Shown here piece by piece: positions 4,501-51,271 of a DNA stretch of 64,000 bases. Origin of the DNA: a phage; NCBI GenBank assembly GCA_038450185.1, contig GCA_038450185.1_4765.1; one strand, 5' to 3'. Within the stretch, counting starts at the first letter, position 1; every line of letters starts with the position of its first letter. Position numbers and translations under genes: made by a program. The notes under the pieces were generated by a model that ran no database searches, had not been told where the DNA came from, and saw nothing but the letters and a program-made list of their open reading frames with translations.

Positions 4501-4779
4501 TTATAAAATAATTTTTTGATATTTTTCTATGATGTTCGTGTAATTCACATCAACCGCTAGCACCGTTGCTTCGAATCCACCGTTTAGCCAATGGCTATGA
4601 TCGTGATCGTGAAAGAAACCTAGACCAGTACGAAGACCTTCTTTATATTCGGCGCGTACATTTAGATCATCATCGATAAACAGATAAAACCATGAATTTT
4701 TACTAGGATTGATGATACAACCTTTCAGATTCGGGAGAATATCACGACTAAGAATAAACTTATCACCTACTTTGAACAT
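4501..4779 (-). CDS. hypothetical protein, HxHxHW family paralogue
   Basis: ORF track 4501..4869 trimmed to ATG 4779 with GTGAGGA SD; motifs FIDDDLNV, HDHDHSHW, VLAVDV. Confidence 0.5.
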   Translation of the reverse strand: MFKVGDKFILSRDILPNLKGCIINPSKNSWFYLFIDDDLNVRAEYKEGLRTGLGFFHDHDHSHWLNGGFEATVLAVDVNYTNIIEKYQKIIL

Positions 4780-4793
4780 AATATTTTCCTCAC

Positions 4794-5102
4794 TTATAAA
4801 GTTTGACCGTTGTTTTTCGCGTAATGCTGAATGCGTGCTTGATCTGCTTCCGATGGTGATAGATTCCATGCAACCACTACAACTTCTGAAGCATCGTCAT
4901 CCGTTTCTGATACCCAATGATTGTGATTCATACAGTTATTTGCTATCGAGTGAGCAAATGATTTCATCACTGGAGACGTATAATCATAGTAACGGATTTT
5001 CAGATTTTCATCAACATACAAGTAGATCGTATACGGCTTATATTCAGTAACCAATAACAGACAGTTACGCAATTCTGGGAAAATCTTTTTAGTTAATTTC
5101 AT
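4794..5102 (-). CDS. hypothetical protein, HxHxHW family paralogue
   Basis: ORF track; motifs YVDENLKIRYYD, NHNHW, VVVAW. Confidence 0.5.
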   Translation of the reverse strand: MKLTKKIFPELRNCLLLVTEYKPYTIYLYVDENLKIRYYDYTSPVMKSFAHSIANNCMNHNHWVSETDDDASEVVVVAWNLSPSEADQARIQHYAKNNGQTL

Positions 5103-5304
5103 ATTCTAGTTCTCCGTAATACACGGTAATCCATTTTTCTTCATACTTTGTATCTTTCCAGCACACAATCCCGTTTACTGTGCAATCTTTGGAATTGACG
5201 AATGATTCATATTGTTCTGCATCTTCCATCATTTCATGAGCGGTCTTTTCATCGAATATATCGCAGATCGCTTTATATGCTCGATAATCTTTAAATTTGC
5301 TCAT
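5089..5304 (-). CDS. hypothetical small protein (tandem paralogue of 5307..5516)
   Basis: ORF track 5089..5316 trimmed to ATG 5304; shares MSKFKDY..AY N-terminus with neighbour. Confidence 0.4.
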   Translation of the reverse strand: MSKFKDYRAYKAICDIFDEKTAHEMMEDAEQYESFVNSKDCTVNGIVCWKDTKYEEKWITVYYGELEYEIN

Positions 5305-5306
5305 AA

Positions 5307-5516
5307 TTAACACCACTCAAGAGTTTTTGAAAACACATCTATCCATTGTTGAGTATATGCGGTTTCTTTCCATGACACAATACCAGTCGAATAATGGTTT
5401 TTGTTTCCAGAAAAGGACGGGCATTTTGATGCATCTTCCATCATCTTTTCGGCGAACTCTGGTGCGTATACTCGCAGGATCTGTTGATATGCTTTATAGT
5501 CTTTAAATTTGCTCAT
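5307..5516 (-). CDS. hypothetical small protein (tandem paralogue of 5089..5304)
   Basis: ORF track; ATG at 5516. Confidence 0.45.
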   Translation of the reverse strand: MSKFKDYKAYQQILRVYAPEFAEKMMEDASKCPSFSGNKNHYSTGIVSWKETAYTQQWIDVFSKTLEWC

Positions 5517-5781
5517 AATCGTTAACTACCTTATCAGCTTCTTTTATTGTTTTTACATCAACTGCGATAATCCGTAAAGGTTCGTCGAAGGTCCACCAAT
5601 GATCGTGAATATCAGCTTGTGATTTATCACCAAAGGAATCACGAATATCATTTTTACATTTATAGCTAATGTGACCGTCATAGTCAACATAAAGGTAATT
5701 ATCGAAAATCGGCGTTTTTAAGATCATACCGAAAAATCTTTCTTTGTGTGTCTTATCCAGTGTTGCAGTAATTCGCATCAT
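5503..5781 (-). CDS. hypothetical protein, HxHxHW family paralogue
   Basis: ORF track; ATG 5781 with AGAGGA SD; motifs YVDYDGHISY, HDHWW, IIAVDV. Confidence 0.5.
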   Translation of the reverse strand: MMRITATLDKTHKERFFGMILKTPIFDNYLYVDYDGHISYKCKNDIRDSFGDKSQADIHDHWWTFDEPLRIIAVDVKTIKEADKVVNDYEQI

Positions 5782-5793
5782 AATATATTCCTC

Positions 5794-5973
5794 TTAGAAA
5801 GGGATGGTCATTTCTTGAGCTTGTACATTCTCGTTAGGATTAAACTTCATCCAACCGATATTGTCTACCAGCATATGTACATTTTTATCATATCCTACGT
5901 GAGTAGTCAACACTAAATGTGCTTTACCTTCAACGATGATTTCCATGTACTTCTGAACTTCGATAGCTTTCAT
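5794..5973 (-). CDS. hypothetical 59-aa protein (below ORF-track size cutoff)
   Basis: Hand translation: ATG at 5973 after GGAGAATCAAA RBS, MKAIEVQKYMEIIVEG..., stop at 5794-5796; promoter cassette upstream. Confidence 0.4.
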   Translation of the reverse strand: MKAIEVQKYMEIIVEGKAHLVLTTHVGYDKNVHMLVDNIGWMKFNPNENVQAQEMTIPF

Positions 5974-6005
5974 TTTGATTCTCCGTTTGTTGTCTTGATG
6001 GGAGT

Positions 6006-6034
6006 ATATTACTACTCCCTTTAATCATTGTCAA
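6006..6034 (-). promoter_or_regulatory. early promoter cassette (TTGACA-17-TAATAT) with palindrome across -10
   Basis: GGGAGTATATTACTACTCCC palindrome overlaps the -10 box. Confidence 0.45.
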
Positions 6035-6037
6035 CTA

Positions 6038-6205
6038 TTATTTGTTAATTTCCGGTGCGTTGCTCGGATAGTAACCTTCTTTAACACCCAGATATTTCGC
6101 AACCATTCCGGTGATCTTCTGTGCTACTACGATATCGAATTTCAGGTAGTCTTCACCGTGGTTTGCTACAATGTATGCTTCGCATTCTGCTTTAGTCTGG
6201 AACAT
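6038..6205 (-). CDS. hypothetical small protein (paralogue of 2295..2462)
   Basis: ORF track 6038..6241 trimmed to ATG 6205 (MFQTKAECEAY). Confidence 0.5.
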   Translation of the reverse strand: MFQTKAECEAYIVANHGEDYLKFDIVVAQKITGMVAKYLGVKEGYYPSNAPEINK

Positions 6206-46204: not shown

Positions 46205-46498
46205 TTAACCGCCTTTAACCATTGATACAGGAATTGTTTTCTGATTTGTGTATAAGTGGCCTACTTCAATTTTTTCTTGAATCACCACGACGTTACAATA
46301 TCCACTGTCTTTAAGTTTTCTGATAATGACTCGCTTTTGTTCGTCGGTGATAGGATTGACTGTTCTCACCAATTCACCACAAATAATAGCACCATCTTTA
46401 CAATTACCAGTAACTTTCATGCTACGACCGTGAACAACAACCACGTCACCGTAAATCACATTTTCGTCGTCGTATTTGGTAATAACCGTGACCGTCAT
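46205..46498 (-). CDS. hypothetical protein
   Basis: ORF track; ATG 46498 with AGAGGG SD. Confidence 0.45.
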   Translation of the reverse strand: MTVTVITKYDDENVIYGDVVVVHGRSMKVTGNCKDGAIICGELVRTVNPITDEQKRVIIRKLKDSGYCNVVVIQEKIEVGHLYTNQKTIPVSMVKGG

Positions 46499-46543: not shown

Positions 46544-46861
46544 TTATTGTTCTACAGTATAACCGTTGTTTTCAAGCCATGCAATAACAATCTTTTCGCC
46601 AATTTCATCGAGCATTTCATCAGCGCCATATTCTTTAATGAAAGTCGATGGATCATTATTGCTTACTACGTGCTGGATCACAACATGTTCAGGGATTGCA
46701 TCTAACAGTTCATCATGGTCATACTCGTTAGCAATATCTTCAACGGTAACATTATTAGCCAGATCCACATCGTCTAAAGTCACCGTAACGCGTCGAGATG
46801 GATATAATACCTGTTCTACTTCAACATGTGCACTTTCGCAAGTAACCTTCATATCAATCAT
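46544..46861 (-). CDS. hypothetical acidic protein
   Basis: ORF track; ATG 46861 with AGAGGA SD. Confidence 0.45.
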   Translation of the reverse strand: MIDMKVTCESAHVEVEQVLYPSRRVTVTLDDVDLANNVTVEDIANEYDHDELLDAIPEHVVIQHVVSNNDPSTFIKEYGADEMLDEIGEKIVIAWLENNGYTVEQ

Positions 46862-46875
46862 AATTAATTCCTCTA

Positions 46876-47877
46876 TTAGTAATGGCTAAAACCTTCGGTT
46901 ACATCTTCAACCACATAGTAACGATGACAGCGCATTTTGGCATTCGCATAATCTTTCGGGATACTTACAACGTGACGCGGATCAACTTTGCATTTAATGA
47001 TTCGGCCTCGCCCACCGCCATAGTGCGGAATATAGTGTTTCGCTGCAACGTGGAGGCCATTAGAGCAAGTGCGATCATCATCTGGGTCCACGTCTTTACG
47101 CTTCATTTTAACCGTGCGCCCTGGGCTATTATCAAACGTATGCGTAAAGAAATCTTTATAATCAACATCAACACGTTTCCATGCATAGAAACAACCATCT
47201 TCCCCGATCTCAATGTCGTTGTGCTCTAAGAAGTCAAACAGACGATCTACGGCCTTACGGCTAGGGTTTTTCTTGCACTTCTCAAAGAAGTTCAGATAGT
47301 GCGTATATGGCTTATTCTCTTTAATCGACTCCACCACTCGACGAGTCAGATTATTATCAAGAACAATATTATGATAATACACAATACCATTTTCGATACG
47401 GAAAGCACCGTGATAATATACTTCAACCGCTTTCTTAATGTCAATCAGCGTAATAGCTTTGATGAAATCATTATGTTTAATCGCTTCCAGTGCTTCATTA
47501 AAGTTAACATGTGATGGGTCAGCAGTATAAACAATGTCACCACATGTAATAGTAATAAATTTAGATGAGGCTATTGCTACGATTTTTGAGGAAGTAGTCA
47601 CGGGCTTTTTTGCGCGTTCACCGCCTTTTCCTTTACTGGTTTTACGGCGTGCTTTACGGTTTTCCAGTGCCTTGCGACCTTCCGCTACTGCGTCTTTCTG
47701 AATCAGTAATACACGAGAGGCAGTGCGACGAGATACACCGAATGCTGCCGCAAGTGCTTCGCGGGTAGTAAACTTACCTTCGCCCCACTGTTTAGCCAGT
47801 TTGATTTGTTTTGCGGAGTCCAGACATTGAACGTTACGGTCAGAGACGGTGATTTTTGCTTTAGTCATATTATTCAT
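46876..47877 (-). CDS. rIIB: rIIB protein
   Basis: ORF track; similarity to recalled T4 rIIB (PSRKAVDRLFDFLEHNDIEI, FDNSPGRTVKM, RYYVVEDVTEGF). Confidence 0.8.
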   Translation of the reverse strand: MNNMTKAKITVSDRNVQCLDSAKQIKLAKQWGEGKFTTREALAAAFGVSRRTASRVLLIQKDAVAEGRKALENRKARRKTSKGKGGERAKKPVTTSSKIVAIASSKFITITCGDIVYTADPSHVNFNEALEAIKHNDFIKAITLIDIKKAVEVYYHGAFRIENGIVYYHNIVLDNNLTRRVVESIKENKPYTHYLNFFEKCKKNPSRKAVDRLFDFLEHNDIEIGEDGCFYAWKRVDVDYKDFFTHTFDNSPGRTVKMKRKDVDPDDDRTCSNGLHVAAKHYIPHYGGGRGRIIKCKVDPRHVVSIPKDYANAKMRCHRYYVVEDVTEGFSHY

Positions 47878-47930
47878 TCCTCTATTAGTTGGGCGACTCT
47901 CGCCGCCCGATTCACATCATTATACCAGAA

Positions 47931-48062
47931 TTATTTTGCTTCTACAACCTTGCGGATTGTGCGGTCTGATACATTATAGATTCGTGCCAGTTCGCCTTTA
48001 GTCAAGCCGCGAGCGTATTGTTTACGGATGGTTTCTTTCTGGATAGCGGTCAGTTTAGTCAT
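47931..48062 (-). CDS. hypothetical 43-aa helix-turn-helix-like protein (below ORF-track size cutoff)
   Basis: Hand translation MTKLTAIQKETIRKQYARGLTKGELARIYNVSDRTIRKVVEAK; ATG 48062 with AAGAGGTGA SD. Confidence 0.4.
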   Translation of the reverse strand: MTKLTAIQKETIRKQYARGLTKGELARIYNVSDRTIRKVVEAK

Positions 48063-48073
48063 AATATCACCTC

Positions 48074-50179
48074 TTAAAATTTAACATTCTTAACCAGTTT
48101 CATAAAGTCTTGTGCGCGTTTGTCGTTATGCAGAATACGATACCAGTTATCTACAATATCATACAGTAACGGGCTATTCTCTTTAAACTTCGCACAAACT
48201 GCTTTAATTCGTTCGTTTGCTGCCGTGAATTTTTCATCACAAATCTTTTTAGTTTCTTCGTCCATAATCCAACGAGTACGAAGGAGTAACTTGGAAACCT
48301 CTTTATTATAATGACGACCGTACAGTCTGTCAATAAATTCTGGAATACAGCGTTCTAGTTCATCGTCATGAAACAACATAGTGATCACACCCAGATATTC
48401 GCCATACCCCAGATGATTGGTCTTAACCTTCTTAGCCAGACCAGCCAGCTTACCGCGAACAAATTCTAGCGCACATTCCAATTGTTCGTCAACGAGATAT
48501 TTTTGTGTCTCGTTTCTAGTAATAATATACTTTGTTACCCCGAAGTAGTCAAGCGCCGTGTGTAATGTATTTTCACTATAGATCGATTTACGACTACGGC
48601 TTTCGAATGCATCACCTACGCGGAACATGTGCAAGCCTGATAACTCGCGAATCTCTGCCGCTTTCATGTGATGGCTGGTTTTATGCCAACTGTCACCAAT
48701 CTTTTCCATGATATACACGTTAGGCAGCTTGGGAGTCGCTTCACGTTGTGTGCTCGGTCTTTCCGGTTTAACTGCTTTAGCACGCAGATCATCGGCCTCT
48801 GATACCTTAATCACGGTCATTTCAGAATCATCATAATACTGTTTGATGTACTCGAAAGTCTCCATATGTTTTTCGTTGTTCTGACGGAACACCAGTACCT
48901 TTTTATTGATGCCGTATTCTTGGACCATGCCGTTAAGAGTCAGTGCACGCAGTTTCGGTTTATCAGTATCATCAATAAGACACGTAATATCTTCTTTATG
49001 CATCCATACAAAATGCGTAATGTTGTATTGACTGCTAACGAAAGCAGGGCGCAATTTGCTGATTGTGTGACGAGTACGATACAGAGTATACACCTGACCT
49101 TCTACGTCATTTGGCGAATCTTTACCCGCATTCACAAACTTATTATAGGTTGCTACCGGATCATCCCACTGCCCGATCTTACCCATCTTGCTAATAATAT
49201 TGCGTTGAGTCGATGAATACTCGCTCATAAATTGCGCAAGTTTACGCTCTGTTTTAATGTTGGCGATCTTTTCTTTAACCTTTTCCAACATCATTTCATT
49301 GATTTCTGCAATGCGTTTTTCGATGTTCGCTTTAGTCTCAATTGACAAGTGAACTTCTTCACGCGATGGCATCAGGTCCAGATCACCCAACTCAAAACTA
49401 ATGTAAATGGTCTGGTGCTGGCGGTTTACAGCTTCTAACCATGTTCCGCGAACATATTCATACGGGATCGGATACTGGATCTTACCCATGATTGCATATA
49501 CTACATAGGAATCGTTATCACGCCCATTACAAACATAATAATTATCAAAGCTAGGGAAATAATTAATTTCGATTGCATTGATATTCGGTTTGTGTTCCCC
49601 AAAATGACGCAGTACAAATTGCGCTTCTCGATGCCATGTCTGAATGTCTTTTTCTTTCACCGGAATAGTGATTTTCAGACCGTTGTCTTCATAGGTCGGT
49701 TCGTCGAAAATCTGCACCATTTTCGGAATAGAGTTTTGCACAAATGCAGTAAAGCCATAAGCGCGACCATTGTAGTAGTTTACGATTGTAAAGGTGTCAG
49801 TATAGCTATAAGCAGACTTCGCACCTAAACCAAAAGATCCGATATAATCATTAGTCTGGTCTTTGGTTGATTCAAAGTAAACAGTAAACAGTTGTTCTAA
49901 TTCTTTCTTAGACGGAATACCCGTACCATAATCACGCACAGAGAAATAAGGTTCAATTGCGGTAGGCAAATGAATATCAAACGGACGATCTAAGGTTCCG
50001 GCTTCTTTGTGGGTGTCGGTAGCATTACATGAATACTCACGGACACAAGCACGTTCACAATATTGATAAGTGTTCTTAGAAAGCACCATAAAAGCCTTGC
50101 TACTTGCTTTCAGAGAAAAATCAACCGCACCGCTCAAGTCACTGCCAAATACTTCTTCATTATCAATATGCATTTTCAT
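48074..50179 (-). CDS. rIIA: rIIA protein (GHKL-type ATPase-like)
   Basis: ORF track; 701 aa; IGSFGLGAKSAYSYTDTFTI matches recalled T4 rIIA; adjacent to rIIB. Confidence 0.75.
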   Translation of the reverse strand: MKMHIDNEEVFGSDLSGAVDFSLKASSKAFMVLSKNTYQYCERACVREYSCNATDTHKEAGTLDRPFDIHLPTAIEPYFSVRDYGTGIPSKKELEQLFTVYFESTKDQTNDYIGSFGLGAKSAYSYTDTFTIVNYYNGRAYGFTAFVQNSIPKMVQIFDEPTYEDNGLKITIPVKEKDIQTWHREAQFVLRHFGEHKPNINAIEINYFPSFDNYYVCNGRDNDSYVVYAIMGKIQYPIPYEYVRGTWLEAVNRQHQTIYISFELGDLDLMPSREEVHLSIETKANIEKRIAEINEMMLEKVKEKIANIKTERKLAQFMSEYSSTQRNIISKMGKIGQWDDPVATYNKFVNAGKDSPNDVEGQVYTLYRTRHTISKLRPAFVSSQYNITHFVWMHKEDITCLIDDTDKPKLRALTLNGMVQEYGINKKVLVFRQNNEKHMETFEYIKQYYDDSEMTVIKVSEADDLRAKAVKPERPSTQREATPKLPNVYIMEKIGDSWHKTSHHMKAAEIRELSGLHMFRVGDAFESRSRKSIYSENTLHTALDYFGVTKYIITRNETQKYLVDEQLECALEFVRGKLAGLAKKVKTNHLGYGEYLGVITMLFHDDELERCIPEFIDRLYGRHYNKEVSKLLLRTRWIMDEETKKICDEKFTAANERIKAVCAKFKENSPLLYDIVDNWYRILHNDKRAQDFMKLVKNVKF

Positions 50180-51243: not shown

Positions 51244-51271
51244 ATTATAGAGAATCTCCCTTGTATGTCAA
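51244..51271 (-). promoter_or_regulatory. consensus sigma70 promoter (TTGACA-16-TATAAT)
   Basis: Immediately after gene 39 stop, upstream of gene starting 51209. Confidence 0.55.

Follow-up and report, generated by a model that had tools for sequence, protein, structure and literature searches.

Gene content of the rII locus

The 64,000-nucleotide stretch of phage DNA analyzed here (GenBank assembly GCA_038450185.1, contig GCA_038450185.1_4765.1; the whole stretch is referred to below as the window) belongs to an RB49-like coliphage of the genus Krischvirus, and the 1.5 kb around the gene discussed in this work matches 59 phage records at 97 to 99% identity. Reading along the minus strand, one meets topoisomerase gene 39, then several small open reading frames (ORFs), rIIA, a 43-amino-acid (aa) ORF, rIIB and, further on, topoisomerase gene 52. 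Few loci in genetics are as famous as the rII genes, and it is the small ORF between them that concerns us. An earlier reading of this DNA, made from the sequence alone (the sequence-only reading), had placed it between rIIA and rIIB, in agreement with the flanking matches to phrog_612 and phrog_609, and had stated that the two rII genes are neighbors in T4. Indeed, rIIA abuts rIIB in T4 and other T4-like phages, and the 43-aa gene here occupies the slot of the T4 rIIB start, with the same layout of stop codon, Shine-Dalgarno (SD) sequence, and ATG past rIIA as at the T4 rIIA/rIIB junction.

The ATG of the gene lies 11 nt past the rIIA stop codon. The strong SD sequence attributed to the ORF in the sequence-only reading is present as AAGAGGTGA, which overlaps the rIIA stop (TAA, 48076 to 48074) and ends 4 nt before the ATG. 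In related phages the ORF is labeled "hypothetical protein" (e.g., RB49p274), and its PHROG, phrog_15481, carries no function.

Conservation and selection

All 59 close Krischvirus relatives carry the ORF, and the protein is identical in 54 of them and nearly so in the rest. The exact sequence was found on 515 contigs, and an identical protein is encoded by RB49, Phi1, GEC-3S, and others. A search of 5.8 billion proteins returned only five clusters, each of 43 aa, at 98, 86, 86, 77, and 69% identity, and a sixth lineage with a 45-aa version was reached by tracing RIIB homologues. In every contig examined, the gene sits between rIIA and rIIB, 4 to 11 nt past the rIIA stop, and a length of 43 to 45 aa has been kept in this same slot across six diverged lineages. 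The SD sequence recurs in the same place as GAGGTGA or GAGGTAA at the related loci L011, L013, L015, and L023 and as a weaker TGGTGA at L010.

Between lineages, synonymous sites are near saturation (proportion of synonymous differences [pS], 0.47 to 0.78), nonsynonymous differences are few (pN, 0.015 to 0.17), and the ratio of nonsynonymous to synonymous substitution (dN/dS) is 0.02 to 0.13. The peptide is 69 to 86% identical in lineages whose RIIA proteins are 36 to 40% identical and whose RIIB proteins are about 54% identical. Residues 21 to 41 are near-invariant, with only conservative I/V and K/R changes at residues 28 and 38, respectively. Given this substitution pattern, together with the retained length, start, SD sequence, and position, the ORF is therefore neither a chance ORF nor a decaying remnant. 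As judged from these sequence comparisons, it is a real gene under strong purifying selection that is more conserved than either of its neighbors. The sequence-only reading had considered that the ORF might be the remnant of a regulator, an idea that strong purifying selection contradicts, and had counted a lack of conservation among the signs against its proposal; conservation extends through the 59 relatives and the six diverged lineages.

Several other interpretations of this stretch were considered and rejected. Fusion of the ORF to rIIA or rIIB by read-through or frameshifting was discarded because the distance to rIIA varies (4, 10, or 11 nt) and the relative reading frame is not preserved. 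Two plus-strand ORFs (47806 to 47979 and 47849 to 48001) were set aside because the genes are all on the minus strand, as are 38 of the 39 strong promoters, and because selection acts in the minus-strand frame. A structured RNA in place of the gene was also rejected, as an Rfam scan of positions 47700 to 48200 found no match to a structured RNA. One sequence in the library of representative proteins, P0039 (32 aa), shares its first 13 residues with the window peptide and then diverges (FHFSRGLTKCDVSRMYNFS) while retaining the helix-turn-helix (HTH) pattern; this could be a divergent variant cut short or an artefact of assembly.

Predicted structure of the peptide

The gene product, MTKLTAIQKETIRKQYARGLTKGELARIYNVSDRTIRKVVEAK, is a basic peptide of 4.98 kDa, with 11 K or R versus 4 D or E residues, a net charge of +7, and an isoelectric point (pI) of 10.4. 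Its initial description as a small basic HTH-like protein, to be checked by HTH prediction, was upheld by two types of prediction: the Pfam model CENP-B_N (PF04218) matched the peptide at 26 bits (cutoff, 21.2; E value, 7e-6), and AlphaFold2 returned a three-helix HTH with a mean predicted local distance difference test (pLDDT) score of 90.7. The other Pfam HTH models that were tested on the peptide gave many weaker matches, all under their own cutoffs; the NCBIfam scan of the peptide likewise gave only sub-threshold HTH matches, and a sequence search of the PDB with the peptide and RIIB yielded no significant match.

The predicted fold resembles the DNA-binding domains of transposase, GcrA, Hin, and sigma region 4. 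In sequence, the peptide is 14 to 19% identical to Hin (52 aa), the N-terminal domain of Tc3A, the DNA-binding domain of GcrA (49 aa), and sigma-70 region 4, all of which, unlike the peptide, are domains of larger proteins with extra contacts or partners. Together, the basic charge and the predicted fold suggest that the peptide binds nucleic acid.

Relation to the N-terminal domain of RIIB

Outside Krischvirus, weak tblastn matches of the peptide in phage genomes fell mostly on the first ~40 codons of rIIB from other T4-like genera, and HTH proteins of actinophages were among the other weak matches. An alignment of RIIB from T4, JD18, CC31, phT4A, X20, Metamorpho, and the window phage revealed a common N-terminal HTH. 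When the peptide family was compared by hhalign with RIIB of the first six of these phages, residues 3 to 42 of the peptide were paired with RIIB residues 5 to 45 at a probability of 98.1% (E value, 1.2e-13), and positions 756 to 795 of phrog_609 also matched the peptide (E value, 0.009). A profile of 11 RIIB N-terminal modules scored the free proteins at 41 to 51 bits, higher than all but a few of the 149 proteins chosen beforehand for similarity to the 43-aa peptide itself. Exactly one such HTH module was found in 111 of 120 RIIB clusters.

The free peptide and the RIIB N-terminal HTH (the first ~45 residues of a protein that Pfam PF26926, Phage_T4_rIIB, spans as a whole) thus share the pattern xLxxxQKxxIxxxYxxGxTKxELAxxYxVSxxTIRxV and the slot directly past rIIA, and both are predicted with high confidence. 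On these sequence comparisons, the peptide is a module of the same type as the RIIB N-terminal domain, and both fall into one broad class of HTH modules. It differs from that domain in being far more conserved and in not being a covalent part of RIIB: its ORF stands alone and ends in a stop codon of its own, with a promoter and a stem-loop downstream. The window RIIB retains an N-terminal HTH of its own, past which are predicted a long helix, a disordered basic linker (residues 81 to 92), and the conserved body (AlphaFold2 pLDDT, 87.3 overall). The recognition helix of this fused module differs from that of the free peptide (VSRRTASRVLL) and is itself kept among relatives.

The contig of one metagenomic relative (L010, positions 4685 to 6064; ENA ERZ27260015 k141_60519) encodes, downstream of its free 43-aa gene, an RIIB of 459 aa whose N terminus carries three HTH modules in tandem; the second and third are identical at 30 of 46 residues. 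This is the only one of the 120 clusters with more than one recognizable module, and the idea that multi-HTH RIIBs are common was therefore withdrawn. Additional, very divergent HTH-like segments are present in RIIB of the Aeromonas phages Ah1 and avDM1.

Promoters and the spacer upstream of rIIB

The coordinates of the gene, its predicted helices, and the surrounding features are collected in Table 1.

Table 1. Features of the rII locus, with positions in the window
Feature	Position	Strand	Basis or remarks
43-aa HTH gene	47931-48062, including stop codon	minus	ORF and translation; phrog_15481, E value 3e-34, full length
Start and stop codons of 43-aa gene	ATG 48062-48060, TAA 47933-47931	minus	read from sequence
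Shine-Dalgarno sequence AAGAGGTGA	48067-48075	minus	read from sequence
Helix 1 of peptide (predicted)	residues 6-18, 48047-48009	minus	AlphaFold2
Helix 2 of peptide (predicted)	residues 22-28, 47999-47979	minus	AlphaFold2
Recognition helix 3 of peptide (predicted)	residues 33-41, 47966-47940	minus	AlphaFold2
N-terminal HTH of RIIB (predicted)	residues 18-56, 47817-47701	minus	alignment; AlphaFold2 pLDDT about 97
PeSL promoter (putative)	47919-47947	minus	read from sequence; annotated as promoter in GEC-3S; same sequence in L010
Stem-loop GGGCGGC-GAGA-GTCGCCC	47891-47908	minus	fold -17.9 kcal/mol, z -3.55
Sigma-70-type promoter TTGACA-17-TATAAT, perfect	48305-48333	minus	inside 3' part of rIIA, ~270 nt upstream of ORF
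rIIA, 701 aa, upstream neighbor	48074-50179	minus	phrog_612, E value 3.9e-189; called rIIA in relatives
rIIB, 330 aa from ATG 47868	46876-47868 (47877 with first ATG)	minus	phrog_609, E value 3e-106

The spacer between the 43-aa gene and rIIB (47878 to 47930; 53 to 62 nt to rIIB) has the makeup of a PeSL (promoter-early stem-loop) cassette, as defined in PMC2839356, where the parts lie within about 50 to 100 bp: an upstream stop codon in AT-rich DNA, a sigma-70-type promoter, a stem-loop, an SD sequence, and an ATG. The -35 element of the promoter, TTGTAG (47947 to 47942), lies inside the last codons of the 43-aa ORF, and it is followed by an extended -10 element, TGgTATAAT, with TATAAT at 47924 to 47919. 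The stem-loop is likely an attenuator or terminator for transcripts of rIIA and the HTH gene. At L010, L011, L013, L015, and L023, a GC stem of 7 to 10 bp is also present between the ORF and rIIB, with a differing sequence, and its position relative to the promoter varies: it lies past the -10 element in the window and L010 and across it in L011 and L013.

Using lacZ fusions, Arbiol et al. (2010) demonstrated that the PeSLs of RB49 and phi1 are strong promoters as well as terminators or attenuators (PMC2839356), and we suggest by likeness to these assayed PeSLs that the spacer may have promoter and terminator activity. It contains all of their parts, and a stem-loop downstream of the -10 element represents one of the five described subclasses; the difference is that the cassette here lies between two paralogous HTH modules rather than flanking an ORFan in a hyperplastic region. 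PeSLs were proposed in the same paper to mediate modular shuffling, and PeSL-like sequences were reported between the split genes g43A and g43B of Aeromonas phages; the rII locus is not mentioned in the searched text of PMC2839356.

Such elements are common in the window, which has 38 near-consensus sigma-70 promoters (at least 11 of 12 positions) on the minus strand versus 1 on the plus strand and at least 11 promoter and stem-loop units, all on the minus strand. Examples of the minus-strand promoters are those at 51271 to 51232, 42264 to 42236, 7406 to 7378, 6268 to 6240, 2525 to 2496, and 148 to 120; the stem-loop is often AGGGGATCnnnGATCCCCT, located between the -35 and -10 elements. ORFs of 80 aa or more contain 14 of these 38 promoters.

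The perfect promoter in the 3' part of rIIA is the sole promoter within that gene to match at least 11 of 12 positions. Comparable promoters lie 213 to 400 nt from the rIIA end in L010, L013, L023, and the partial L015, where the free gene is present, and none was found within rIIA in L025, L026, or T4, which are without the free gene. This element may serve the HTH gene as a dedicated promoter; that is suggestive only, because internal promoters are common here.

At the other end of the spacer, the rIIB start is taken as ATG 47868 in the KFS-EC, GEC-3S, and RB49 records (330 aa), while UPWr_E1 takes the first ATG (333 aa). A GAGG motif lies 1 to 2 nt from the first in-frame ATG (47877) and about 10 nt from the second (47868), and the second start is more plausible because the motif is too close to the first. 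The same ATGAATATTATG arrangement is found at the rIIB start of L023. Inside rIIB, a strong promoter-like site (TTGACA-18-TATATT; 47415 to 47444, minus strand) would drive the small ORFs at 46544 to 46861 and 46205 to 46498.

Proposed function

We propose, with a probability of roughly 0.55, that the ORF is a functional early gene for a minimal three-helix HTH protein, a trans-acting nucleic-acid-binding module of the RIIB N-terminal type that is associated with the rII system and is itself derived from RIIB. The gene would be transcribed early, either together with rIIA or from a promoter within the 3' end of that gene, and translated from its own strong ribosome-binding site, whereas transcripts would be attenuated at the PeSL stem-loop and rIIB reinitiated from the PeSL promoter. 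The peptide would bind nucleic acid, most likely double-stranded DNA, via its invariant helix 2-turn-helix 3 segment (TKGELARxYNVSDRTIRKVVE), and the free copy may supply in trans an activity otherwise carried by the RIIB N-terminal domain, the fused copy having diverged in its recognition helix. The extreme conservation of the peptide suggests a target that does not coevolve with the fast-changing RIIA and RIIB. As for the origin of the gene, synteny favors a scenario in which the N-terminal module of RIIB was duplicated or split off, which is also the most economical one, with a PeSL now located between the two copies. Iyer et al. regard RIIB as a transcription-factor-like protein (PMC7824862).

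A number of observations weigh against this proposal. As to function, a lone 43-aa HTH without a dimerization element would be a weak DNA binder, and a literature search for reports of expression, binding, or phenotype for the gene (RB49p274) found none. In addition, in the classical work with r1589 and frameshift mutants, the N-terminal part of T4 RIIB was reportedly dispensable for growth on K-12 lambda lysogens. As to descent from RIIB, the free and fused modules within one genome agree at just 12 of 39 residues (~30%), and any duplication is therefore old. Moreover, when the family profile was searched with HMMER against 1.84 billion representative proteins, the top matches were proteins built as tandem arrays of such HTH modules, and the best single modules were those at the C-terminal ends of HNH_3/NUMOD4 and GIY-YIG/T5orf172 nucleases (39 to 49 bits). 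The best RIIB N terminus reached 33 bits and the window phage's own RIIB module 2 bits, and about 25 non-RIIB proteins scored 35 to 49 bits per module, i.e., RIIB modules are not the nearest relatives of the family. Because the score ranking does not favor RIIB modules, descent from RIIB rests on synteny. The free HTH gene is absent from the outgroup contigs L025 (3413 to 3501) and L026 (3417 to 3501), more distant relatives whose RIIB proteins are 51 to 53% identical; there, the gap between rIIA and rIIB holds a classic terminator hairpin with a T run and then a TGnTATAAT promoter, a layout that fits insertion as well as fission. Of the small HTH proteins that stand alone, those most like the peptide (P0133 and P0077) are encoded on short unrelated contigs, and their contexts were uninformative.

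Alternative explanations

An alternative that these scores bring to the fore concerns origin and would leave nucleic-acid binding as the present function: the module may have been captured from a homing endonuclease or another mobile HTH protein inserted between rIIA and rIIB, with the C-terminal HTH alone surviving and becoming domesticated. The nuclease modules share with the peptide a KLTxxQ...YxxG.T..ELA..YNVS..TI pattern, as do the tandem arrays for the KLT..Q start and the YNVS..TI pattern of the recognition helix, and as single modules they outscore every RIIB N terminus (HNH_3/NUMOD4 proteins P0024 and P0042 at 48.8 and 46.8 bits, as well as P0100 and P0108, and GIY-YIG/T5orf172 proteins P0075 and P0094). 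An HNH endonuclease was also among the weak tblastn matches (H88), and T4-type genomes are rich in such endonucleases (PMC2988022). However, the peptide is free-standing, with no nuclease-family match, and only 4 to 11 nt separate the rIIA stop from its ATG in six lineages; the absence of a nuclease domain or remnant argues against a recent endonuclease. The library holds millions of HTH modules, so the top scores are extreme values and poor evidence of descent, whereas the RIIB-module profile places the free family at the top of the sequences outside its training set, and other phages begin rIIB in exactly this slot. We therefore consider capture unlikely, although not far-fetched.

The peptide might instead be a general transcription modulator unrelated to rII, for example, a sigma-region-4-like or GcrA-like protein acting on host RNA polymerase or on early PeSL promoters. 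RB49 is without MotA and middle promoters (PMC1524935), which leaves room for a regulatory role. However, the Pfam model Sigma70_r4 scored the peptide at 21.1 bits, short of its cutoff of 24.1, many unrelated HTH families score alike, and the adjoining PeSL stem-loops vary in sequence from lineage to lineage, unlike the recognition helix. We regard such a modulator as improbable.

Still more doubtful is a local rII autoregulator that binds an operator near the rIIB promoter and sets rIIB expression, in keeping with the suggestion of the sequence-only reading that the protein could regulate the rII region. The gene does lie directly upstream of that promoter, and an inverted repeat is located just downstream of the -10 element, but this repeat differs in sequence and position in each lineage, whereas the recognition helix is invariant; we looked for a conserved operator in the spacer across the six lineages and saw none, as this mismatch would lead one to expect. 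Variation of the stem-loop fits an RNA-level element, namely, the stem-loop of a PeSL, and argues against an operator for the recognition helix. Further, Escherichia phage vB_EcoM_G37-3 (MK327941; L016, 140 to 160) has lost the -10 TATAAT through an 11-bp deletion between TAAT repeats, and yet its HTH gene is intact; the deletion brings the HTH ORF and rIIB into one frame, with two stop codons still between them.

A chance ORF or decaying fragment with no protein-level function, for which one could cite the frequency of short ORFs in the surrounding AT-rich DNA (8 kb hold 100 of 25 aa or longer) and the lack of a functional annotation anywhere, was rejected as scarcely credible in view of the low dN/dS at nearly saturated synonymous sites, the conserved length, start, SD sequence, and position, and the confident fold.

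Returning to the proposed RIIB-type module, a bolder version of it would be a three-part rII system in which the free HTH is the most constrained component and has a conserved target in the host, which would be a DNA site or RNA polymerase/sigma-70. We offer this as speculation and think it improbable as well; the peptide could then be, e.g., the missing post-early switch of MotA-less phages or a DNA-anchoring arm that serves the RIIA/RIIB complex in trans.

Implications

The gene had already been catalogued as an ORFan with an HTH label: phrog_15481, RB49p274, and the UniRef "HTH psq-type domain-containing protein" are the peptide's own family, and the annotations seen do not make the link to RIIB. 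What is new is the strong selection, the relationship to the RIIB module, and the PeSL context. The sequence-only reading had noted neither the kinship in module type with the RIIB N terminus nor the second, diverged module in RIIB nor the PeSL makeup of the spacer. Taken alone, the peptide is one more small HTH protein, and the finding is a modest one. The locus nevertheless shows how promoter and stem-loop cassettes can end up separating domains that belong to a single gene family.

The N-terminal HTH of RIIB is near-universal, being found in 111 of the 120 clusters, and yet it is said to be dispensable for the phenotype scored in the classical work. A 43-residue peptide provides a simple handle on this module, since it can be synthesized, deleted, or swapped without touching RIIB. 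If the three-part view of the rII system were true, the "dispensable" N-terminal segment of RIIB would have a separable and selectable function that could be studied as a 5-kDa peptide.
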